From Azolla caroliniana (Eukaryota > Plantae > Polypodiophyta), in NCBI GenBank assembly GCA_043228905.1, contig JBHGNT010000006.1:11284001-11348000 (forward strand): 64,000 bases of DNA. The letters are read 5' to 3'. The notes beneath the pieces were generated by a model. It was not told where the DNA came from, did not search any database, and saw only the letters and a program-made list of their open reading frames with translations. The position numbers and the translations under genes were made by a program. Within the stretch, counting starts at the first letter, position 1; every line of letters starts with the position of its first letter. This document shows, piece after piece, positions 27,435 through 63,019 of the stretch.

Positions 27435-30400
27435 TGTTGAGCGGCAAGCTCAATTGGAGCCGGATCGGCTGAATAAGCATGAGCCGGTGAGCGAGACGGA
27501 TCGGTGAGCCAATGAGCACCTAGTGAGCAAAAGAGCCGGTGAGCTGGGGAGCCAGTTAGCCGGATCCAGCAGTAAACGGAAGCCTAGTAATAGCTTAGAT
27601 TACTAGGTAGTTATTGTCTTGTAGTTAGTGTCAAACTCTCGTGTGAGCATTGAAGTACGTTGTACTTCTGTCAGTCCCATGGGGACTTGTATAAATAGTG
27701 TTGTTAAGCACGCTGTATGCACAGAGTGTTGATATAATTTTTGAATTTAGATTCTTGTTCTGCTCTCTCTGTCTCTCCCGAGTACTCTCTGTATTCTGTG
27801 TATTATTCTCTCTCTCTCTGCTGCTACACAACCAAGTTGTTGTCTTATGCTTCCGCACATATGTTTTAACATGGTATCAGAGCACGAGGGTTGAAGACCT
27901 TGAAGCCGACATTTGCTTTCGCAAGACAAACCCTACAGGTTATGAGAACAGAACAGTAGACAGAGAAAAAATATAGATAGAGGTATGGCGAGTTCACTTC
28001 ATACAGAGAAGGTTGAGCGGAGGAACTACGTGTCCTAGTCATACAAAATGCACCAGTACCTACTGGGGCATGGGTATTGGAGTTTCGTGGAAGGAATGAA
28101 TGAGGTAGCACCAGTGCCTGCACACAAGGACTTCCCGCTATGGGAGCAAGGAGCGAGCCGAGTATTATACTACCTCACATCCTGTGTGCACGACCACATG
28201 CTCGACTACATCAGGGATGCAAAGACGCCAAAGGAGGCCTGGGAAAATCTGCGTAAGATTTTCACCACAAGTACCACAACCCGCAAGTTGTAGCTCCGGC
28301 AAGAGCTGAACAACATCCGACAAAGAGATATGTCGGTTACAAACTACACCACCAAAATAAAGGAAATTTGCAATGCGCTCAGGTCCATCAACGTGACGGT
28401 GGACGAAGACGAAATGGTACAAATCTGCCTTGGTGGTCTAGCACAAATGTACAGGCCAATCCGGACAGCGATCTGCACCCAAGAGAAACCACCGACCTTC
28501 TTCAACTTGCAATCAATGCTGATGGTCGAAGAAAACCACGCGAGTGGGTCCAGGACCACTCAATCAAACAACCGGATGATGTACACGGAGGCGGATGGGT
28601 CCCGTGGGCATGGGGGACGAGGTGGGTCGACACGCACTGGAGGCGGTCAGCAAGAGCAGGAAAGAAGGCACAGAGAATGTGCCGATAGCAGTTCCGAGAC
28701 TTCCACAAGTAGGGGGAGTCGAGGCGGCGCCGGAGGCCGGCAAGACAAATCCGCCACGGAATGCTGGTACTATGGCAAAAAGTGCCACAGAGAAAGCGAG
28801 TGCTAGAAGAAGCATGCCGATTCAGATAGACCTGGATCCGACAAAACCGGTCGGGAGAACTGGCAATACTCGCACTACGCAGAAGGATCGGGAGGATCCA
28901 AAACTAGAAAAGCCGGTAAGGGGCCAACCTTGGTGATGAAGCACGAGGCAAATTCGATGAAGAAGACCACTTCCAAATCGGAGGAAGTATGGTATGTTGA
29001 TTCCGGTGCGTCGAATCACATGACGAGCCACAAAGAGTGGTTCTCCTTCTTGGAGAAACCGGAACAACCGGGGGTTGTCGAAACCAGAGACGACACTCCT
29101 CACGCAATCGTGCATGTCGAAGAAGTCCCTTTGAGCCACGTCAGATAGAGGTGGAAGCTGATGAACGTATTACACGTTCCGACTATCACGAAGAACCTGG
29201 TGTCAGTCGGTTAGATCGTTGACCAGGGGATGCAGGTGCGGTTTACACACCTCGGGTGCTTCATTGAGGATGAGGGCCAGATTATTGCGCAAGGGCGCTC
29301 TCGTAGTGTAATTCCCACACTACGTGAAAAATTACATTTTGGTCTGTCCGGATAGGACATGGAGTACCCGGTGAGAACCGGAAGAAGGAACTGGTAAGGA
29401 CCGAAACCGGTAAGGAGACCCGACAAGAGCTGGATGAAGAAGGCCGGTGAGAGTCGGTGAGAAATGGACAAAGAGATCGGTAAGGAGGTCCCGGTAAGAA
29501 CCGGACAAAGAAAACTAACAAGCACCGGATGAAGCAGAACCGGAAAGAGCCGGATGAAGAAGGCCGGTGAGAGTCTCTCACCGGATGAAGAGAGATATTT
29601 GTAAATAGAAGAAAGCATAAAACTATATATTACATGCATAGGGCAAGAATCGAACCTTGCACCTCCATGTTAATAATGTTAAGCCTTATCCTTATACTAG
29701 CGTATTATGAATTTTAAAGTTATACTAAACTTTATCCCATGTAAAATTTCTAGACATGCATGGTACAAAAAGTTATTCATGCATAGACACTCGAGTTAAA
29801 AGAAAAGATGAGATAGGAAGCTAATCATGCACATGCAGTGTGCATGAAAACTAAAGATAGGAAAAGCATGATGCTTGCATGTGATAAACTTAGACTCTTC
29901 CAACACTATATAAGGAAGAGAGAAAGATGTATAGAGGTTGTTGATTATTTTACAAGGGTTGATTAATATAATATAATCGTGGGATCCACGAATTTGCTAA
30001 CTATTATTCTCTTAATTTGAGTACTCACTAATACACTATACTCATGGGATTCACAAGTTTTTCATATCTTTCTTTCTCACAATATATTTCACATTCTTAA
30101 TTGCCTTAGAATTTTCCTTCCTCCTAGTCCAAAACCCCAGTGGTTCCCACCTGACTCACGCAACGATCCGGAGCCGAAAGGCACGACAGCGCAGAGATGG
30201 GAGGATGTTCATCCTTGACACCAATGACGTCGGCACCACTTTATTCGCCAAAAGACAGAAGATCAAATTGGACATCGACTTGTGGCACAAGAGGATTGAC
30301 CATGTCAATTACCGGAGGCTTCAAGACCTGCAGACGAAACAAGTTGTTTTCGGTTTGCTGAGGTTCAGTGGCCGGAAGGCCCAAATATGTGAAGCCTGCC

Positions 30401-33900: not shown

Positions 33901-35073
33901 CAAGGTATGCTGGTTTCACTGTTATGAACCAGTTATTGAAAAATTGTTCACACGCTTGTGGGGCGAAAGGCCAGAGGAGGAGTCCTTTTCCCTCTTCTTG
34001 TGGTCCTTCGGACTTCAACAATGGAACGACGGAGTCGTAGCTCTTTGATTCACCCCTACGCACAAGTCATCCCCGTATTTTGCCACATACATGAGTTCGG
34101 TTCTCCAAGGCCTCTATGGAGAGCTCGATTCAACCTACTCGTGGCTAGATCAATCAGTTTCGAATCAAATAAAAACAACGTCAAAGATTCAACCTTGTTG
34201 CGCCTACACCTAATGGCTTAAGCCGTTGTTCCCATTCACTCGCTGACCCATTATGCAAAAGGTATGTCGTTAGGGTGCAAAGTGCTAAAGCAAGAGCTGA
34301 CAACGTGAAGCTTCGCTCAAGGGTTCACATATGCGAAAATTAGTGGTTTTGCCTTTGAAATGTGGAACACTTTCTCAGCTTCGCTCTTCCGACTGATAGT
34401 TTGCATCGGATTTCAGGTTTTCTATTGCATTCCCAACATACGGCGGGGTCTTTTCACTTTTTCCTCATGGTACTTGTGGTACACTATCAGTCATTGAGGA
34501 ATACTTAGGCACGAGGGTGGTCCCCCTTAGTCACGTAAAGAGATCATTATTCAAACACACTATCCGCATTTTGTAATGGTGATCAAACTTGCCAGGAAAG
34601 ATCTACGGGGCTATCACTTTCTTTGGCTAGACCTTCCAACATTTTCAGAATTCCTTGAGGAAGGGTTCCCATCCTTCCCTCTACTGCAAGTTCTCCCCCA
34701 CATGGGGCCAAGGAAGGCGGCCGGCCCTTCTAGGGCCCCTTCCCTTTTCTTTGCCTAATACGCTTTCGCTTGTCGCGACTAACAGAGTCTCCATTGATTT
34801 CCTTTCCTTTAGCTACAATGATGTTTCAATTCGTTAAGTTTCTCAAGTTCGAGGCAGAGCCGCAACACACACCATGCCCAACAAGCTTGAATATGGTTTC
34901 CCGATTGGAAACCCATGGATCACAGATGATATCTCCCCATGGCCTTTCGTCTTTGGAAGTGTCCTTCCCTCTCAATGCCCATGCATCCATCCAATGCATG
35001 CTTTTCGATGCAATAGGAGTTGAACCTACCGAACATTGTACAAAATCTTAGTGAGTGTTTTGCGATCGCCACT

Positions 35074-38828: not shown

Positions 38829-41211
38829 AATGCATCATTGGTATTATGTGTTTACCATTCTAATCTGTCTTCACATCCATAGCTTTCTTTTTTGCATTGT
38901 TGTATGCCTTTTCATTGTTTTTGGCTAGTATCAGATTTGCATCTGACCTTTAGGCAATCACATATATGATTTGAAAGGGTCTGGGCTGTCGAACCACGTC
39001 TCTCGAAATTTATCAGTACATATGGCAGAAAACACTTTTCACATATCGAGGTCGGAATGGGATCTGATTCGGGTGTTTCATGTCTTACAAAGCTACCTGG
39101 ACGTAACGAAACGCTCGATTAATGAACAAAAGAGTGTTAACAACAAAAGCGGCCGACGCCGAATAGCAAGCAAGCAAACAAGGAAAGTGCAAATACAATT
39201 GGTACTTCGCCTTCGATCACTACCAACCTCACAAGGATGTCATCAATTCGCAGGTGGTTATTAAGTAAAAAGTGTAATATATATGGCTAACAAACCAAAG
39301 TTCTTCTTTTGAACTTTCAAGAAGGCCTGAATATTCATAGATTATTATACGATAATCTTTAATGCGGCTCAGATTGCGGAAAGAATTGAATGCTAGAATT
39401 TCGAAATTCCGTTGGTAAAATTAAGAAGGATCATGCAAGAAGGCAATATCATCTTTTGGCCATAAGGTGCGAATCCAACACTTTTCTTTTCACTTTAAAG
39501 TAGTCAGCGACAATCTTGATGAATCAATGGCAAGAAGATGCTTTGCACTTTTCATTCCACTTCAAAGCAACAATCTTTGAACTCGGAAATGGAAAAAGAG
39601 CTTGGAAGAAGAATGGGCTAAGGACGGAGTCAAACCGTCATTCCAGGATTTGCAGTCCAATACATTGCCATTATGTTACCCAGCCAATAGAACGTTTTTC
39701 CCGCTTAAATGAAGAGAGGCGGGACTATCATTTCATTTAAGGGGGGTGACCTTAGGCCACCATTTGAAATAATCTAAAGCCTTACAATCAATTTCTGTGA
39801 TGCCATAAAATGTGAAACAACAACAATTTTGGGTAAAATAAGAATTAGTGATTGAAAAAGACCCACAACTTGCTTGTGAAGCCGACCAACGTATGCCAAC
39901 ACAACTTGTTTATGCCTATTAAAGAACCTTTTAATGCTAATTCACAAAAAACCATTCGAACCATACAAAATAACTAATATACGAAACGATTGTCGGAATT
40001 GGTTGCAATTGCTTGCAAGATTTGTATGATTATTCTTGACAAAAAAAAAAGAATTGATTATTCTACATAAACTCTAATCCAACCAAGGTTGCTCCTTAGT
40101 CCTACCATTATATTTAATGCATTATCCATATTTGGTATAAAGTATACACATGTGCATTAAGGGTACGTGACATTATATTTCAGGTTTGAATTTGACATGA
40201 CTAAATTTATTCTCATTGTCTGATTGTATAACATAGATTATAAATGCATCATATGAGCACAAAGTACGATATAAAAGGGGTTAAAAAGACACCAATCTAG
40301 AGGTAAATTTTCAAGCAAAAACTAATTAGGGAGAAGTTGTCCCAATGGTTGATCATGCTGTGTAGAGTTGGGTGAGGATATCTTCACATATGGCTATCAT
40401 TACTTTAGAGAAGTTTCTGAATCATCTCCCATCATGGATCAAGGGGCATGCAGCTATAATAAATGGCACTTTCTTCCATTATTTCAAGCAAATACTTGTC
40501 ACTTTCATCAATGCTCCAACAATGTTCCCGATTTTGTCCATATGCCAACCATCTTCAGAATGAGAATTTCACTCTAAAGCAATTCTGTGTAAGAAATGAA
40601 CTAGCTCAGCGGTTTCAATCTTTGTTACCAGTTTAATTCTCCACTAAATTTTGGGTTCCAATTTTCATTTATAATTACTCAAATTGCTTACTTTTTATCG
40701 ACTTCAAAATTTGGGGAAAATGTTTGGTGTCTTACCAATTCGGACACCAATATATATTGGGTACTTCATATGTCATCTATTTATTGTCACTGATGTGAAA
40801 ACAAGATTTTAAGAGAGAATTCCAACCAACGCCAAAATGCCTCTAGCCATTCAGAATCCCGTGAAGTGTATTTTTTATATTTCTATATTAAGATGTCAAA
40901 ACTTAATGAGAAAATAAAGCTTTAGGCTACACATCTAAGGCTTTATAATAACTAAACTGATAGATATTTTTCCAATATGATAAACCAAAATGAAGATCAG
41001 CATTAATAACGTGTTTGAACAAAAATGTATATTGTGGTGCATTTTGCCTTTCCAGCATATTGAGGGGTTTTGGGCTTTGAGGTGTATGGTTTATGGTTAA
41101 CGGTTTCGGATTTGATGGCTTATACGATTTTAGGTTTATAGAGTTGATATGGTTTATGGTTGAAACTATGTAGCATTAAATACCAACCATGTTCACAAGG
41201 CATGGGCTCTT

Positions 41212-55183: not shown

Positions 55184-56002
55184 TGTCGTGCCTTTCGGCT
55201 CCGGATCGTTGCGTGAGTCAAGTGGGAACCACCGAGGTTTTGGACTAGGAGGAGGAAGAATTTGAGGCTAATCTAGTTATGAATATGAATAGATTATAAG
55301 AAAGAGATATAGAAACTTGTGAATCCCACAAGTATAATTGTTTTAGTTTATCTTAATCGTAGTAATAAATTGAAATAGTTTAGAATAGGTTAGCGTAGAT
55401 TGAGAAAAGAGATCAAACCTTGTGAATCCCACAAGTATTACATTAATCAATATTTATGTAAGAATATGAATTTAGATTGAAAGATTATATAAAACTTCGT
55501 GAATCCCACGATTCTATTTTATTATTGGTGTTTTAGGAAATATATCCAATTTCCCAAATATTTCACAGACACCTTACATTGTGCTCCCTATCCTTATGTA
55601 GTGATGAGGGAGTCTTAGCAATCCATGCTTTTTCTTCTCTAACTATAGACTTTATGCTTTATCTAAAGTGATCATGCTTTTTCTATCTTGTGCGTTTTTT
55701 ATCGACTATAACGTTCATGCACGCTAGATATGCATGCGTAGCTTTTTCTTTTAGCATGCGTTTTCCTTTTAACTAAAGTTTATCCTACATGAACTTACGT
55801 TTTTTATGTGGGACATCTATTTTTTAATATGAATGAAATGCTAGTGTAATGGTAAGGTTTTATATTATTAAGATGGAGGTGCAAGGTTCGAATCTTGCCC
55901 TATCCATGTTATATACTTTTTAATATTTTCTACTATTTATTCATATTTATTAAATCAGTACTTTATAAGTTTTTCACGTAGTGTACGAAATACACTACGA
56001 CA
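55184..56002 (-). mobile_element. Solo LTR family F, copy 2, with 4-bp TSD ACGA
   Basis: TGTCGT...ACGACA termini. ACGA at 55180-55183 and 56003-56006. Confidence 0.88.
55835..55906 (+). other. tRNA-like (box A/box B) cassette in family F LTR (also 56947-57018 on + and 29635-29707 on -)
   Basis: TAGTGTAATGGTAAG ... AGGT GCAAG-GTTCGAAT-CTTGC. Confidence 0.62.
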
Positions 56003-56354
56003 ACGAGCATGTCGACTACCCTAGGGCTTCTTTCCTAAGGGCATGCTTAATGTTTCATACACCCATTTGATTATTATTCTAATTATTTTCTAATTATACA
56101 AGTTGTCTTCCCACTTTCTTATGGTTTTCTTGTAATTGTCATCTACTCACTAACACTTAACTCTATTTATTACTGTTAATTTTTATGTTCATCTACACTA
56201 TTTACATGCATTTCCCTAATAATGGTGTAATGATTCCGTGTAGACTATTTTTTTGCATTGAGTGGGCATCATGCCAATTTTTGAACATTTTTTCCAAAGT
56301 GACATCTAGGTTTAAGTCATGTAATCAAGCCTTAGAACTCGATTAGAAACACGT

Positions 56355-57115
56355 TGTCATGCCTTTCGGCACCAGATCGTTGCGTGAGTCGGGTGGAAAC
56401 CACTGGGGTTTTGGACTAGGAGGAAGAAGAATTTGAGACTAATTAGAATATAGATAGGTTGTAGGAAAGAGATATAGAAACCTCGTGAATCCCATGAGTG
56501 TATTGTATTAGATTAATCAATATAAAGATAATAATATGAATTTAGATAGAAAGAGAAGGATATAGAAACCTCGTGAATCCCACAAGTATAGTTTATTTCA
56601 TGAATCCCACAAATATAATTTATTAATTGGTGTTTTTAGAAATATATCCAATTTCCAAATATTTCACACCCTTATTACATTATGCTCCCCATCCTTATAT
56701 AGTGATGAGAGAGTCTTCGCAATTCATGCTTTTTATCTAATTATGCCCTCCATGCCTTTTCTATCAATAGACTATATGCTTTCTCTAACATGCTTTTTCT
56801 AAAGTCATTCGTTTTTTTTATCGACTATAGTGTTCATGCACGCTAGATGTGAATGTGTAGCTTTTTCTTTTATCATGCGTTTTCGTAAAGTCTATCCTAG
56901 CGTGAACTTACCTTTCTATGTGGGACATCTACTCTTTGACACTAATGATATGTTAGTGTAATGGTAAGGCTTCACATTATTAACATGGACGTACAAGGTT
57001 TTAATCTTGCCCTATGCATATAATATACATTTTGATATTTTCGTCGGTTTCTTCATATTTATTAAATCGGGTACTTTATACGTTTTTCACGTAGTGTACG
57101 AAATACACTACGACA
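56355..57115 (-). mobile_element. Solo LTR family F, copy 3, with 4-bp TSD ACGT
   Basis: TGTCAT...ACGACA termini. ACGT at 56351-56354 and 57116-57119. Collinear with copy 2. Confidence 0.88.
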
Positions 57116-57636
57116 ACGTGAGTTCACCTATGATGTTTTACACATTGTTGCACACAACACCACCACTTGTATCAATTTGTGGCCTTATGTTTGCAATTGT
57201 GCAAATCATATCACTATATTTGGATGGATATGTGCATACATTGTGTCAGAACCAAGGATAAAAGATAGAGTGATGGAAGAAGGATAGAGAAGAATGGATG
57301 TATAAGATAGAGAAAGAAAGAGAATGGATACAAGATATGTAATGAGAGCTAAAGACTGGTGTTGATTCGAATTGATTTGAGAATACATGTATGCGCTTAT
57401 TTATAGGTTTCTATAGAATAGCTTAGAGATTTCTAGAATGTTCTAGAATGTTCTAGACCTAGAATGCTCTAGGACATTCTAGAACATTCTAGAATAATCT
57501 AGAGTTTTTACAATAATCAATGTAATACAAGAAGTAGCTTTTATTGTTTCATATAACAATAAGCTATCTTAATGGTTGAGGTTTTCAAGTATGAATTACA
57601 AGGTTCGAGGTTCAAGTCCGGGTGACGCCATAATGG

Positions 57637-60600
57637 TCATGTGTTCATGACACTATCCCTCCTTCGAGAACGCCGAGTGGAAGTCAGCGTTAACATTGTT
57701 GGGCTGGGCTTGTTTGGATAGTGACGATGGAAGTCGGTGACCAGAGCTTCAGCATTACAAATGTTATCGATAGGTTCCCAATCACTCGGAGGATAACCAA
57801 GCCAATCAACTAGATAATAAAGCTTATTGCGCACAATCTTAGAATCGAGAATAGCAGCTACCTCGTATTCGGGGCCATCCACAAGTTGTATAGAAGGCGG
57901 TGGTGGCACAACACGATTAGGAATTAAAGAGGTGTGGCAAGGTTCCAAAAGAGAGCTATGAAAGACAGGGTGAAGCCGCATATGTGCAGGAAGGTTAAGA
58001 CGAAATGTTGCATCATTAATCTGCGCCGTGATGACAAAAGGACCTAAGCGTTGATAGTCAAGCTTAGCACACGGTCGGGTAGTCTTGATGTGACGACGAA
58101 GCAACCATACACGGTCACCAACCTTAAACGGAGACTTAAGACGATGTCGATCGGCATTGGTCTTATGGTGTGCTTGCGCTTTCTGAAGATGTGACGATAA
58201 CTCGAACTGGATTTGTTGTAGTCGGTGGAGGTGATGCGCCGCACTAGGGTTTCGTGACACCTCGGGAAGATCCAGTATACACCATCGAGGGTGGTTGCCG
58301 GTGTAGGCAAAGAAAGGTGTAACTTTGGTAGAAGAGTGGACCGTGTTGTTGTATGCAAACTCGGCAAGATGTAAAATTTTACTCCAATCATCTTGTTGAT
58401 AACTAATGAAACATCGAAGATATTGCTCGAGCGTTTGATTTGTGCGCTCTGTTTGTCCGTCAGTTTGTGGATGATAAGCCGAAGAGAGTTTGCAAGAGAT
58501 TTTGAGGCCTGCCCATAGGTGCTTCCAAAAGTGTGAGATAAATTGAGGACCTCGATCGCTAATAATATCATTCGGGAGACCATGATGGCGAAACACTTCA
58601 CGCATAATGAGATATGCAGTTTCTTCACTATTAATGGTCTTTACACATGGTACAAAATGTGCCATCTTGGTGAACCGATCCACTATTGTTAAAATAGTAT
58701 CAAAGCCTTTGGAAGGTGGCAGATCCGTAATGAAATCCATAGAAATAGACTGCCATGGCTTGTTGGGAGGGGGTAATGGTTGTAGTAAGCCATAAGGGTG
58801 ATGTCGGGGTATTTTGGCACGACAGCAGGTGTCACAAGTGCGAACATAATCTTCGACAAATTTTTGCAAGTGAGGCCACCAAAATGAACGTTTCACCAGC
58901 TCAATGGTCTTGGAAATACCAAAATGTCCAGCCATGGGGGCATCATGACAATGTTCCAACACTTGAAGTCGGGGTGATCCGTCGGGGACGTAAAGGAGAT
59001 TCTTGTAGAAGAGTAAACCATCTTGCCACTTGAAGTCCTGATAATGTTGAGATGACCCTGGCAATGTGGAGCAAGATGGACGACTTGAACCACAGTGGGC
59101 TAAGACATCCTTAGCAAAATCATCCAAATGAAGTTGTTGCCGAATAGTGTCAAGAAGGGTAGAATCAAGTGGTGTGGCATAAATTGTTGTTACCTGTAGC
59201 TTTGATGGCCCGAGGAGAGTTTGCTTTTGATTGTCAAAGGCCGGATCTCCAGGTCGAAGGGCTAGATACGAACGCCGAGACAGAGCATCTGCTTTCCCTT
59301 GTTGTTTTCCGGGGCGAAAAATGATCTTGAAATCGAAACGCGTTAGAAATTGGGCCCACCGAGCTTGTCGTCTATTTAATACTCGAGCTGTTTGAAAATA
59401 TGTGAGATTTTTGTGATCACTATAAATGATAATCTGATGAGGTGATCCTTCTAGAAAATGACGCCATTGCTCAAATGAGTCGACCACAGGTAGTAACTCC
59501 TTGTCATGCACCTCATAGTTTATCTCCGAAACAGTAAACTTTCTCGAGTGAAACGCGACTGGATGTATCTGCCCGTCCTCGCCTGGTTGCGATAGGATAC
59601 TCCCCAATGCAAAGTCTGATGCATCCGCCTCAATAGTAAATGGCTTTTCAGGATCAATATGTGCTAGGATGGGTGCTGATGTGAATGCCTCTTTCAGTTG
59701 CGTAAAAGCCTTGTCCGCTTCGATACTCCAAAAAAATGCTTGATTTTTCTTGGTGAGTTGAGTAAGGGGCAACACAATGCTTGAATAATTATGTATGAAT
59801 TTGCGATAGAAGTTCGCAAATCCGAGGAAACACTGGACATCCCGAACTGAGCATGGGGGTTTCCATTCCAATATTGTTTGGACTTTTGCCGAGTCCATGA
59901 AAACACCCTGGGATGAAATAGTATATCCCAAAAATTCAACTTGTTTGCAATCAAAACTGCATTTCTCAAGTTTGGCGTAAAGACCATACTTCCTTAGGCG
60001 TTCAAGTACTTGCCGCACATGTATATCATGCTCCCCCTGTGTTTTAGAGTAAATCAATAGATCATCTAGGTAGATGATTAGAAAAATATCCAAGAAATCC
60101 CGGAAGATGTCATTTGCCATATGTTGGAATACGGCAGGTGCATTTGTGAGCCCGAAAGGCATGACTGTATACTCGAAATGACCATACCGAGTACGAAATG
60201 TTGTTTTCCACTCATCTCCCGGCCGAATTCGAACAAGATTATATGCACCCCTTAGATCAATTTTGGTAAAATGCTTTGCCCCACCAATGCGTTCTAAGAG
60301 ATTGGAGATTAAAGGTAAAGCATACCTATTCCTTATGGTGACTTTATTTAAGCCTCGATAGTCCACGACCAAACGAAGGGAGCCGTCCTTTTTCTTCACA
60401 AAAAAGATAGGAGCACCAGCTGGAGACTTTGAATGTCGAATAAACCCATGTGCAAGATTTTCCTCGATGTATTCTCGAAGAACCTCAAGCTCAGTGGGTG
60501 ATAAATTGTAAATCGGACCCCACGGAGGCTCTTTTCCTGGTTGGAGATCAATAGGACAGTCGTACGGCCGATGCTTTGGAAGAACTCTAGCTTTGACTTT

Positions 60601-61260
60601 GTCGAAAACATTAGCATAGTCTTGATATTTTTTGGGAATTTGGATGTCTGAATTCCCTTGAGTGACACTAGAAGGTGTCACTGATACTGCAAATAAGAAA
60701 AGGTCCTCCTTGCCTCCCACTTGGTGCAATTGATGCAATGTGATGGCTGAAATTTGATGAGAAGGATATGGTGCATTGGTAGAACTATATACTTTGGGAG
60801 GATAATCCCGAGTTCGATCCTTGAGAATGATATTTTCTGCTAAAGGGCACCTAATTTCTCGCTTCCTCCAATCGATTCTAGGGTTATGTAGCTCGAACCA
60901 TGGCAAACCGAGGACAATTGGATGCTCAGGACTACAGATTATGTTAAAGGAAACTACACATCCTAAATCACCCAAGAGTATGTGTATTGGCTCAGACTCT
61001 TCAAATATCTTCCCGGAAGCAATGGGGCGTCCATCAATCACTACTACGGAAACTGGACAAGGAAGTGTATGCAAGGATATTTGGTGTTTTTGGGCAAAAT
61101 CTCTATCCATGAAACAAGAATTGGCTCCAGTATCTAAGAGGGCTTGGACTTGAAGTTGACAACTGGGTGTCCTAACTTGTACTAGGGCTGGGAAGACTCT
61201 ACTAACATGCTTGGAAGAAATGGAACCCACACTAGGTTGTACATATCTAGGGTTGTCCAA
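57637..61260 (-). CDS. pol: Pol polyprotein: protease, RT, RNase H, integrase, chromodomain
   Basis: 1207-aa ORF with LLDTGA, IYLDD, DASDF...SDHKNL, HHCC and DDE integrase, and C-terminal EYEVAAILDS...YLVDWLGY. In the -1 frame relative to gag; that frame is open back to ~61323. Confidence 0.96.
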   Translation of the reverse strand: MDNPRYVQPSVGSISSKHVSRVFPALVQVRTPSCQLQVQALLDTGANSCFMDRDFAQKHQISLHTLPCPVSVVVIDGRPIASGKIFEESEPIHILLGDLGCVVSFNIICSPEHPIVLGLPWFELHNPRIDWRKREIRCPLAENIILKDRTRDYPPKVYSSTNAPYPSHQISAITLHQLHQVGGKEDLFLFAVSVTPSSVTQGNSDIQIPKKYQDYANVFDKVKARVLPKHRPYDCPIDLQPGKEPPWGPIYNLSPTELEVLREYIEENLAHGFIRHSKSPAGAPIFFVKKKDGSLRLVVDYRGLNKVTIRNRYALPLISNLLERIGGAKHFTKIDLRGAYNLVRIRPGDEWKTTFRTRYGHFEYTVMPFGLTNAPAVFQHMANDIFRDFLDIFLIIYLDDLLIYSKTQGEHDIHVRQVLERLRKYGLYAKLEKCSFDCKQVEFLGYTISSQGVFMDSAKVQTILEWKPPCSVRDVQCFLGFANFYRKFIHNYSSIVLPLTQLTKKNQAFFWSIEADKAFTQLKEAFTSAPILAHIDPEKPFTIEADASDFALGSILSQPGEDGQIHPVAFHSRKFTVSEINYEVHDKELLPVVDSFEQWRHFLEGSPHQIIIYSDHKNLTYFQTARVLNRRQARWAQFLTRFDFKIIFRPGKQQGKADALSRRSYLALRPGDPAFDNQKQTLLGPSKLQVTTIYATPLDSTLLDTIRQQLHLDDFAKDVLAHCGSSRPSCSTLPGSSQHYQDFKWQDGLLFYKNLLYVPDGSPRLQVLEHCHDAPMAGHFGISKTIELVKRSFWWPHLQKFVEDYVRTCDTCCRAKIPRHHPYGLLQPLPPPNKPWQSISMDFITDLPPSKGFDTILTIVDRFTKMAHFVPCVKTINSEETAYLIMREVFRHHGLPNDIISDRGPQFISHFWKHLWAGLKISCKLSSAYHPQTDGQTERTNQTLEQYLRCFISYQQDDWSKILHLAEFAYNNTVHSSTKVTPFFAYTGNHPRWCILDLPEVSRNPSAAHHLHRLQQIQFELSSHLQKAQAHHKTNADRHRLKSPFKVGDRVWLLRRHIKTTRPCAKLDYQRLGPFVITAQINDATFRLNLPAHMRLHPVFHSSLLEPCHTSLIPNRVVPPPPSIQLVDGPEYEVAAILDSKIVRNKLYYLVDWLGYPPSDWEPIDNICNAEALVTDFHRHYPNKPSPTMLTLTSTRRSRRRDSVMNT

Positions 61261-61286
61261 CCAAATGGCTCCTATTTTGGCCGGAC

Positions 61287-62450
61287 TTATTCGTTTGACT
61301 CCTCTTCTAATTGGCTTAGGACTTCAAATTTATTGGACAAGGGTGGATTATTCATAATATTAGATTCACTAACTACTTCTAAAATGTTGGACTCATTTTT
61401 ATTGTCATAGTGAATTTGATTTACCTGACGTCTCGGCCTACGGGAGCAATGAATGGCTATATGTCCTGGACCTCCACAATATAAGCACAGATGGTTTGCT
61501 CGACGACGTTGCTTCTCTTCGTCTGACAACGATCCTCGTCGTTGAGTCATATCGATCTCCATGGGTGTAGGACTATCCATTGGGACTGGACTACGTGTTT
61601 GCCTTGGAGTTGGAGCAGGGCTATACATTTGCCTTGGGGATGATTTCGCCGTTACTGATGCATAAGTTGGTGTGAATCTAGATCTTGTTATTTGTTGTTG
61701 TCGCTCACATCGACGCTCAAAAAGGCGATTATCACACCGTATTGCTCGACTAATAGCTTTTGTAAGTGACCTTGGATCCTCGGGGAAGGTAAGAAGTAAG
61801 TCTTTGACATCACTACAAAGGCATGAACGGAATTGCTCCATTAGGGCTTGTTCATCCCAAGGAATATTGCTTGCGATGAGACGGAAATTGGCAGCATATG
61901 TTGAAGTTGGTTGATCACCTTGACGAAGTGTACGAATCTTGTTGATAGCTGTTCTCGCCCCATCAGTATCTCCGAAACAAGCCTTAAATTCCTTGATAAA
62001 TTCCTCGAAATTATTCAGTAGAGGAGAATTGGTCTCTAGCAATGGAGCAAACCACGACAACGCTATGCCAGTCAATAAAGTGCCCACTAGCCCGACTTGT
62101 GATGCATCTGTTGGATAACGTGCGGGATGCATTTGAATCACCAACCGTACTTGATTCAAAAAACCTCGGAAATGCGCCCTCGACCCATCAAATTTAGCTG
62201 GGAGGCTAATTTTGGGCTCCTTGATAAGTCCGTGACCTTCAACCCTTTGTTGTTGTAACACGACGATTGTCGACTCTAATTGTTGCACTCGTCGCGTGAA
62301 CTCCTCTTGTTGTTGTTGCTTCTCTATAGTAACCTTTTGTAGATCCCCAAGTAGACGTTGATTCTCTACTTCAAGAGATGCGAACTTGGATTTAAGGTTC
62401 TCCATTTCTGCAACAAGGGTGAGATATTCTTCTGAGTTAATGGCAGCCAT
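61287..62450 (-). CDS. gag: Gag protein of the chromovirus
   Basis: 387-aa ORF with an N-terminal coiled coil, PKISLPAKFDG capsid start, LRQG motif, PMEID and a CLYCGGPGHIAIHC knuckle. Confidence 0.95.
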   Translation of the reverse strand: MAAINSEEYLTLVAEMENLKSKFASLEVENQRLLGDLQKVTIEKQQQQEEFTRRVQQLESTIVVLQQQRVEGHGLIKEPKISLPAKFDGSRAHFRGFLNQVRLVIQMHPARYPTDASQVGLVGTLLTGIALSWFAPLLETNSPLLNNFEEFIKEFKACFGDTDGARTAINKIRTLRQGDQPTSTYAANFRLIASNIPWDEQALMEQFRSCLCSDVKDLLLTFPEDPRSLTKAISRAIRCDNRLFERRCERQQQITRSRFTPTYASVTAKSSPRQMYSPAPTPRQTRSPVPMDSPTPMEIDMTQRRGSLSDEEKQRRRANHLCLYCGGPGHIAIHCSRRPRRQVNQIHYDNKNESNILEVVSESNIMNNPPLSNKFEVLSQLEEESNE

Positions 62451-62670
62451 GGTTTCAGGATGGTTACAAAGGAGGATAAGAGAGAGTGAGAGAGAGAGAG
62501 AGAATTCGAATCAAACTGTCAAAACCAAGGATAAAAGATAGAGTGATGGAAGAAGGATAGAGAAGAATGGATGTATAAGATAGAGAAAGAAAGAGAATGG
62601 ATACAAGATATGTAATGAGAGCTAAAGACTGGTGTTGATTCGAATTGATTTGAGAATACATGTATGCGCT

Positions 62671-62776
62671 TATTTATAGGTTTCTATAGAATAGCTTAGA
62701 GATTTCTAGAATGTTCTAGAATGTTCTAGACCTAGAATGCTCTAGGACATTCTAGAACATTCTAGAATAATCTAGA
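62671..62776 (-). promoter_or_regulatory. LTR promoter: TATA box plus upstream heat-shock-element-like array (also at 57398-57503)
   Basis: TATAAATA at 62678-62671. TTCtaGAAtgTTCtaGAAtgTTC and further TTCTAGAA units at 62704-62776. Confidence 0.7.
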
Positions 62777-62830
62777 GTTTTTACAATAATCAATGTAATA
62801 CAAGAAGTAGCTTTTATTGTTTCATATAAC

Positions 62831-62903
62831 AATAAGCTATCTTAATGGTTGAGGTTTTCAAGTATGAATTACAAGGTTCGAGGTTCAAGTCCGGGTGACG
62901 CCA
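62831..62903 (+). other. tRNA-like (box A/box B) cassette in the chromovirus LTR U3, antisense to the element (also at 57558-57630)
   Basis: TATCTTAATGGTTGAG ... AGGT ... GGTTCAAGTCC ... CCA with tRNA-like spacing. Acceptor stem does not pair. Confidence 0.6.
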
Positions 62904-63019
62904 TAATGGTCATGTGTTCATGACACATTGCACCCTCCATTTATTTGTGACATTTTGTTTTAGTAGGTAACACATGGTTTTTTGAACCTTGTTTTCACCA
63001 CTTCTTGACTCGTATAGGT

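Follow-up and report, generated by a model that had tools for sequence, protein, structure and literature searches.

Antisense tRNA-like Pol III promoter cassettes in the U3 regions of Tcn1-type and Phygy-type LTR retrotransposons, candidate docking sites for Pol III factors

Results

Composition of the Analyzed Locus

The window, i.e., the whole analyzed stretch of 64 kb within a 523-Mb plant assembly, consists mostly of nested Copia elements, accompanied by an organelle-type insert, three solo LTRs of a family designated F, and one full-length chromovirus (Table 1). The joint occurrence of Tcn1 and Phygy elements points to a moss as the likely host (PMC6317226). Decayed organelle-type LSU rRNA (34007-34998) and a tRNA-Cys (39615-39685) represent an organellar insertion. 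The chromovirus encodes gag, PR, RT, RH, IN, and chromo domains (Pfam) and features the Ty3 domain order with a C-terminal chromodomain. It was classified as Tcn1 by domain order and self-priming, the integrase tree having been computed without named reference Tcn1 sequences. Its primer-binding site (PBS) is a 12-nt complement of the LTR; in the 3' LTR copy, the complementary stretch is located directly after the TATA box (57362-57373). Since the PBS and the transcript-start sequence covary between Tcn1 families, the earlier assumption that this element primes itself, without a tRNA PBS, holds.

An array of palindromic nGAAnnTTCn units, which we take to be heat-shock-element-like, is situated between the tRNA-like cassette and the TATA box, with a second copy at 62704-62767, and is also present in a relative from another contig (L258). 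Furthermore, a short inverted repeat marks the extreme U3 5' end in the LTRs of both families (55976-56002 and 62909-62925).

Table 1. Features of the chromovirus and of the family F solo LTRs in the window. TSD, target-site duplication.
Feature	Position	Strand	Remarks
Full-length Tcn1-type chromovirus (Ty3/gypsy), 5682 bp	57244..62925	-	LTR pair 99.76% identical; TSD CATTG; Pfam
Chromovirus 3' LTR	57244..57652	-	LTR pair and TSD
Chromovirus 5' LTR	62517..62925	-	LTR pair and TSD
Chromovirus pol frame (1228 aa between stops)	57637..61323	-	ORF and Pfam
Chromovirus gag frame (407 aa between stops)	61287..62510	-	ORF and Pfam
Chromovirus polypurine tract (PPT)	57653..57665	-	
Chromovirus self-priming PBS	62503..62514	-	Complements LTR at predicted transcript start, 62635-62646
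Predicted Pol II promoter TATA box, 3' LTR	57398..57405	-	159 nt from T8, divergent from cassette
Palindromic nGAAnnTTCn array	57431..57494	.	Five overlapping three-unit matches; inverted repeat
Chromovirus 3' LTR cassette	57558..57630	+	Antisense to element; 24.7 bits, p=0.003
A box, chromovirus 3' LTR	57565..57575	+	G10 replaced by T
B box, chromovirus 3' LTR	57609..57619	+	Full match
Chromovirus 5' LTR cassette	62831..62903	+	A box 62838-62848, B box 62882-62892; points into flanking DNA
Family F (Phygy-type) solo LTR, copy 2	55184..56002	-	4-bp NCGN TSD
F copy 2 cassette	55835..55906	+	A box 55842-55852, B box 55885-55895; 26.7 bits
Family F solo LTR, copy 3	56355..57115	-	TSD ACGT
F copy 3 cassette	56947..57018	+	A box 56954-56964, mutated B box 56997-57007; 14.6 bits
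Family F solo LTR, copy 1, inside Copia element	29299..30188	+	TSD GCGC
F copy 1 cassette	29635..29707	-	T8 at 29699, B box 29646-29656; 14.0 bits

tRNA-Like Cassettes in the Window

The first-pass annotation had proposed tRNA-like cassettes at five positions in the LTRs of both families, and all five read as described, including the mutated B box of F copy 3. Their T8 residues are located at 55842, 56954, 57565, and 62838 on the plus strand and at 29699 on the minus strand. The distance from T8 to G53 amounts to 44 nt in the F cassettes and to 45 nt in those of the chromovirus, corresponding to the 43-44 nt originally counted to the first G of GGTTC. This matches the spacing of the genomic tRNA genes, since 11 of 12 class I genes feature a T8-G53 distance of 44-46, the twelfth being intron-bearing. 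The chromovirus cassettes are antisense because the element runs on the minus strand, and their B box lies 34 nt from the LTR start. An A and a B box at tRNA spacing correspond to a type 2 Pol III promoter, the A box of the window chromovirus family being weak (8.4 bits, G10 lost). The sequence following the B box in the 3' LTR agrees with the genomic tRNA-Val(AAC) 3' end at 9/11 positions. A T5 run was found approximately 20 nt downstream of the cassette of F copy 2, and in F copy 1 the D-loop GG register is altered as well.

In the ranking of combined A and B box scores within the window, the F cassette at 55842 placed first, followed by both chromovirus copies, whose score was reached in 2% of 200 locally shuffled windows; the p value given for the 3' LTR copy refers to 300 dinucleotide shuffles of that LTR. 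Significance from the window alone is marginal, because two unrelated sites reach 23.1 and 22.1 bits, above the 14.0 and 14.6 bits of F copies 1 and 3. The case for the cassettes rests on the family-level survey.

The first-pass annotation had named covariance-model similarity to tRNA as a check. No such similarity was found, which speaks against its hypothesis: the Rfam tRNA model gave zero matches to the window cassettes at E<=10, and ARAGORN likewise none. A tRNA gene search on five LTRs of a second, larger Tcn1 family remained without a match, and one Phygy-type cassette achieved 12.1 bits to the tRNA covariance model versus a cut-off of 29. A profile HMM of 12 genomic tRNAs assigned E=0.05 to the chromovirus copies and E of about 1 to the F copies in the window, values too weak to count. 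The stems are degraded, as had been proposed: 18 cassettes retain 0-5 of 7 acceptor, 2-4 of 4 D, 1-3 of 5 anticodon, and 2-4 of 5 T pairs, compared to 7, 3-4, 4-5, and 5 pairs, respectively, in intron-free genomic tRNAs. Given the broken stems, the RNA is not preserved in tRNA form; together with the missing Rfam and ARAGORN matches, this rules out tRNA gene identity. Free SINEs were also rejected, the cassettes being located at fixed LTR positions and duplicated in both LTRs.

Prevalence of the Cassette among LTR Retrotransposon Lineages

To survey the families, 43 LTR elements with TG...CA ends and TSDs were called in approximately 0.9 Mb of the genome, and each LTR was scored on both strands with a matrix derived from 12 genomic tRNA genes, 300 dinucleotide shuffles, and an allowed box spacing of 40-58. 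An antisense cassette comprising both boxes was detected in 8/8 Tcn1 elements (p=0.003 each) and 10/11 Phygy elements (nine at p=0.003, one at 0.050), in a sample for which blocks B1-B8 had been picked around pattern matches and F61/62/65 for their resemblance to F. Restricting the count to the window and three 200-kb blocks, likewise picked near known matches, leaves 5/5 Tcn1 and 3/3 Phygy elements with the cassette. None of the 22 Copia elements featured an antisense cassette at p<0.04 (one reached 0.040 with a spacing of 52), nor did either of two other Gypsy elements. The antisense cassette is missing from one young autonomous Phygy element. In U5 of a GC-rich Phygy LTR, the sense strand gave a match with a strong B and a weak A box (p=0.003), and a single sense match was seen in Copia (p=0.030); among 86 strand tests, both are probably due to chance.

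Antisense orientation and a spacing of 44-45 nt were common to all 18 significant elements, and in 17/18 a TATA-like box was located head-to-head with the cassette at 112-316 nt. The survey thus agrees with the earlier claim of tRNA-type boxes at tRNA spacing, antisense in the U3 of two unrelated LTR lineages.

Genome-wide, the strict A-to-B box pattern gave 5,659 matches versus 196 for the reversed control, and the first 100 matches listed belonged mostly to repeat families rather than tRNA genes (judged by eye, with contexts of 30). For the window chromovirus family, the B box together with the 3' end had 268 genomic matches, a few of them true tRNA-Val genes, and one Phygy subtype had 750. 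The second, larger Tcn1 family, counted by means of anchors outside the boxes, comprises 2,531 LTRs and probably corresponds to RLG1.

The cassette could also attract other Pol III-targeting retrotransposons to a landing site upstream of its A box. In 834 kb, a small sample inspected by eye, no recurring breakpoint with an insert upstream of T8 was observed and most Tcn1 LTRs were uninterrupted, and we consider this explanation highly improbable.

A second explanation, which we regard as unlikely, is that antisense RNA is the selected product, running from the 3' LTR over the PPT and the integrase end in Tcn1 or remaining short in Phygy, and damping copy number or feeding siRNAs. Consistent with this, the first T5 run lies 1241-2006 nt into the element from the Tcn1 3' LTR in 7/8 cases. 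Furthermore, within the final 1.2 kb of pol, 9/9 cassette carriers have fewer A4 runs, corresponding to Pol III terminators on the antisense strand, than synonymous shuffles (mean z -1.55), compared to a mean z of -0.44 for 17 cassette-free elements (rank test p=0.002). However, the nine carriers are close kin representing about four independent lineages, with single p values of 0.014-0.49 and one frame of only 783 nt, and three cassette-free fungal-type relatives also showed z values of -1.2 to -1.8. In the 5' LTR, T4 runs followed within 21-36 nt for 9/10 Phygy cassettes, but such runs are expected anyway in the T-rich Phygy strand, and the transcribed sequence is not conserved. Antisense control is established for Ty1 (PMC12786077), and the U3 of bovine foamy virus yields Pol III RNAs (PMC5807749).

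Probable Assignment of Family F to Phygy

The antisense orientation of the F cassette, approximately 110 nt from the LTR 5' end, had been only inferred in the first-pass annotation and was established by the PBS, PPT, and gag-like frame of full-length F elements. These are 3.1-3.9 kb long, with LTRs of 660-907 bp and a gag-like frame only. NCGN target sites are described as a Phygy feature (PMC6317226); all three window copies are solo LTRs with 4-bp NCGN duplications, which were likewise found in 11/11 surveyed Phygy rows. Autonomous relatives of F encode a gag-pol 22-27% identical to the chromovirus pol, and autonomous Phygy elements are among the cassette carriers. No Phygy relatives were found among the viral contigs.

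Within single Phygy LTRs, the cassette region was seen tandemly duplicated two to three times (L420:1919-2648, L421:1585-2306, and L422:1603-2044). In addition, F units form a tandem array with a period of 2895 bp and 99.98% identity (G000:C3:11233381-11242903, L064).

The PBS of F and Phygy matches the genomic tRNA-Trp in 18/18 nt, and for Ty3, pairing of U3 with the primer tRNA through the T and D arms is described (PMC5371799). A comparable sense-strand role was therefore considered, in which U3 RNA pairs with host tRNA D and T arms in the manner of the Ty3 bipartite PBS and aids initiation or strand transfer. The D-loop heptamer of most Phygy cassettes occurs in Trp only, among 19 tRNA types. 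However, the duplex energy with tRNA-Trp ranked 2, 2, 3, 12, 15, 16, 17, 18, and 19 of 19 for nine Phygy cassettes, inter-box similarity to Trp ranked 1-15 of 20, and the self-priming Tcn1 elements need no tRNA, making this role improbable.

Conservation of the Boxes

Between six deep Tcn1 lineages (15 pairs), the B core was 0.90 identical, the A box 0.66, the inter-box DNA 0.43, and the upstream DNA 0.36; the corresponding values for five Phygy lineages (10 pairs) were 1.00, 0.83, 0.65, and 0.40. A-box figures refer to the conserved A-box positions, and the box identities are inflated, because the frames were anchored on the boxes; position and strand of the cassette were set independently, by the LTR start. 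Within the larger Tcn1 family, 72 LTRs were found and 64 aligned after dropping eight second LTRs. The B core G53-T55 was kept in 63, 63, and 64 copies, but shared variants occurred at 5/14 box versus 38/157 other positions (p=0.35), i.e., without excess conservation of the boxes. The earlier statement that the boxes mostly persist was borne out across lineages, where they outlast the DNA between them in a box-anchored comparison, and not within one family. Variants among the 64 copies comprised A14 to G in seven (a subgroup), G10 to A in six, and C56 to T in seven; in two LTR pairs the latter was restricted to one LTR, which fits decay of a CpG after insertion.

The negative within-family test is compatible with a neutral passenger, i.e., the head of a tRNA or SINE that entered ancestral LTRs on one or two occasions and is slowly decaying, with box similarity as the part still detected. 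The degenerate A boxes of active families point in the same direction, as do the lack of the cassette in a young Phygy family and in every distant relative and the C56T change common in another organism's contigs. Against this stands the CpG-containing B core, with an identity of about 0.9 versus 0.43 for adjoining cassette DNA, among lineages 0.3-0.9 changes per integrase column apart, and the spacing kept in all 18 significant elements. The neutral explanation is, in our opinion, quite unlikely, and we infer that purifying selection may act on the boxes.

Occurrence of the Cassette in Other Contigs

Tcn1 relatives were collected at 89 loci from metagenome and viral contigs, of which 13 were dropped (<250 nt downstream) and 76 scanned. 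Four relatives were significant (L258, L259, L260, and L262), all at >=67% identity, L258-L260 possibly stemming from the source species or a close one. Among relatives at <=58% identity, the cassette was detected in 0/70 at p<0.03. Three further relatives (L261, L265, and L266) feature, as noted post hoc, a B core near the LTR start at equal distance from a GG. In the integrase tree (31 rows), the seven labelled carriers fell into one clade of eight including L261 (97/95), requiring two changes, and a single origin of the cassette among the Tcn1 carriers is possible. Its absence from one young autonomous Phygy element and from 70/70 distant chromovirus relatives indicates that the cassette is dispensable for the class. 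Both cassettes are present in contigs of other organism labels; in those of one other organism (run X2), T accounted for 37% of the depth at C56 of the F cassette.

Origin of the Cassettes

The DNA between the boxes is tRNA-like as well, with best z values of 2.2-4.5 and medians across 20 tRNAs of 0.9-2.4. The boxes therefore do not represent motifs that converged in isolation, and capture from a tRNA gene or a SINE is likely. A tRNA-derived head would have inserted into an LTR and would then have been copied into both LTRs by reverse transcription. A SINE-like family of about 350 bp with a tRNA head was found at L424:5732-6046 and L425:4807-5154, one copy being flanked by a 17-bp TSD, and more free tRNA-like heads were observed at L423:6894, L422:735, L422:913, and L478. 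Since such sequences exist in the genome, a SINE insertion is plausible. No single parent tRNA could be assigned: Val fits only the 3' end in the window family (9/11; 8/11 in L258), and Trp was not preferred as a Phygy parent in the inter-box similarity and duplex tests.

A common origin of the Tcn1 and Phygy cassettes was not supported, their inter-box identity being 0.37 versus 0.35 upstream, and they have only generic tRNA features in common. However, a 10-nt motif and RY-type repeats were found between cassette and TATA box in two Tcn1 relatives (L261, L262) and two Phygy LTRs (in L171 and L177), the motif being present in 0/22 Copia LTRs. This hints at U3 module exchange or at common factor sites.

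Further tRNA-derived sequences in the genome included a tRNA-Arg 3'-end copy at the expected PPT site of a Gypsy element (G000:C1:16032967-16042956, L191-L192) and large tandem arrays of single-isotype tRNA genes or pseudogenes (Lys, Trp, Gly, Pro, and Arg; G000:C5, C8, C9, C12, C16, and C18).

Discussion

Proposed Function of the Cassette

TFIIIC bound to a B box places TFIIIB upstream of the A box. We tentatively propose, at a probability slightly below one half (about 0.45), that the cassette is a captured promoter kept as a docking site for TFIIIC and TFIIIB, which may hold the divergent Pol II promoter open in heterochromatin. With TFIIIC occupying the B box, TFIIIB would be positioned beyond the A box, facing the Pol II promoter, and the bound factors would clear nucleosomes at the LTR edge, where flanking heterochromatin would spread in. 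Antisense Pol III RNA would arise as a by-product, approximately 95-110 nt long in Phygy and open-ended in Tcn1. Since an antisense cassette cannot make genomic RNA and the RNA structure is not kept, the boxes in the DNA are the likely target of selection. In fission yeast, tDNAs are described as nucleosome-poor and acting as barriers or attenuators in a context-dependent manner (PMC2659443), and the moss chromovirus RLG1 is located in heterochromatic islands and still transcribed (PMC7466625). A literature search found no report of tDNA barrier activity in plants.

A wider claim, which we regard as rather doubtful, is that the docking sites constitute a portable anti-silencing module of the dominant autonomous Ty3 elements, in which TFIIIC at the LTR edge would both insulate the divergent Pol II promoter and open it, exchanged between chromoviruses and Phygy via U3 and providing thousands of TFIIIC sites that would outnumber the tRNA genes.

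Comparison to Known Systems

A tRNA-like sequence has reportedly been described in the U3-R region of HIV-1. The nearest known counterparts are the Helenus TRIMs (TRIMp3), whose LTRs harbor a tRNA-derived sequence with conserved boxes A and B and no functional tRNA, for which an origin by SINE insertion was proposed (Kojima 2024, PMC10886601). As in Helenus, the sequence described here shows conservation at the boxes, yields no functional tRNA, and is not a primer. However, Helenus elements are non-autonomous (311-1263 bp), and their promoter was proposed to transcribe the element itself (PMC10886601), whereas the carriers here are autonomous Tcn1 and Phygy elements of 5.7-8 kb and gag-only derivatives of 3-3.9 kb, in which the cassette is antisense and coexists with a TATA promoter. 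According to the available text of that study, the function of Helenus is unvalidated, plant members are from Selaginella only, Physcomitrella is not mentioned, and tRNA-like parts occur in "not a few" Repbase LTRs, TRIMs alone having been analyzed (PMC10886601).

The first-pass annotation had drawn an analogy to Cassandra, which is justified insofar as a Pol III internal promoter is located within plant LTRs (10.1101/2023.07.14.548913; PMC12786077). The analogy is loose, since the Cassandra promoter is of the 5S type 1, not tRNA type, and drives the RNA of its own non-autonomous element; Helenus, which that annotation did not mention, is nearer. Among the LTR elements of plants, a 2025 review names Cassandra as the exception that relies on Pol III (PMC12786077). 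Bovine foamy virus likewise carries a Pol III unit beside the Pol II promoter in the U3 of an autonomous retroelement, but its unit makes conserved miRNA hairpins, whereas none were found here and the cassette is tRNA-shaped (PMC5807749). The barriers of yeast tDNAs and TFIIIC serve as a model for the proposed role, but are host tRNA genes, not parts of transposons (PMC2659443). The Ty3 bipartite PBS resembles the cassette in its U3 complementarity to tRNA D and T arms, but is specific to the primer tRNA, a specificity not found here (PMC5371799).

The elements studied resemble moss Tcn1 (RLG1/PpatensLTR) in the chromodomain and self-priming, and Phygy in the NCGN target sites (PMC6317226, PMC2864245, PMC7466625). 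No Pol III boxes are described for moss Tcn1 or Phygy LTRs in the article texts covered; Repbase entries and supplements could bear on this. While tRNA-derived LTR promoters were already known, the autonomous carriers, the antisense orientation, and the coexisting Pol II promoter are new.

Implications

Even if the cassettes are inert, they show that tRNA-derived LTR sequences are not confined to TRIMs but also occur in autonomous elements of plants. Should the boxes be bound, full-length LTR retrotransposons would recruit Pol III factors to shape chromatin and not to transcribe the element, and thousands of extra TFIIIC sites are predicted, in a genome group that includes an easy gene-targeting model. 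This would explain how chromoviruses that target heterochromatin stay transcribed within it, and, if the anti-silencing module exists, LTR copies could set chromatin boundaries across the genome.
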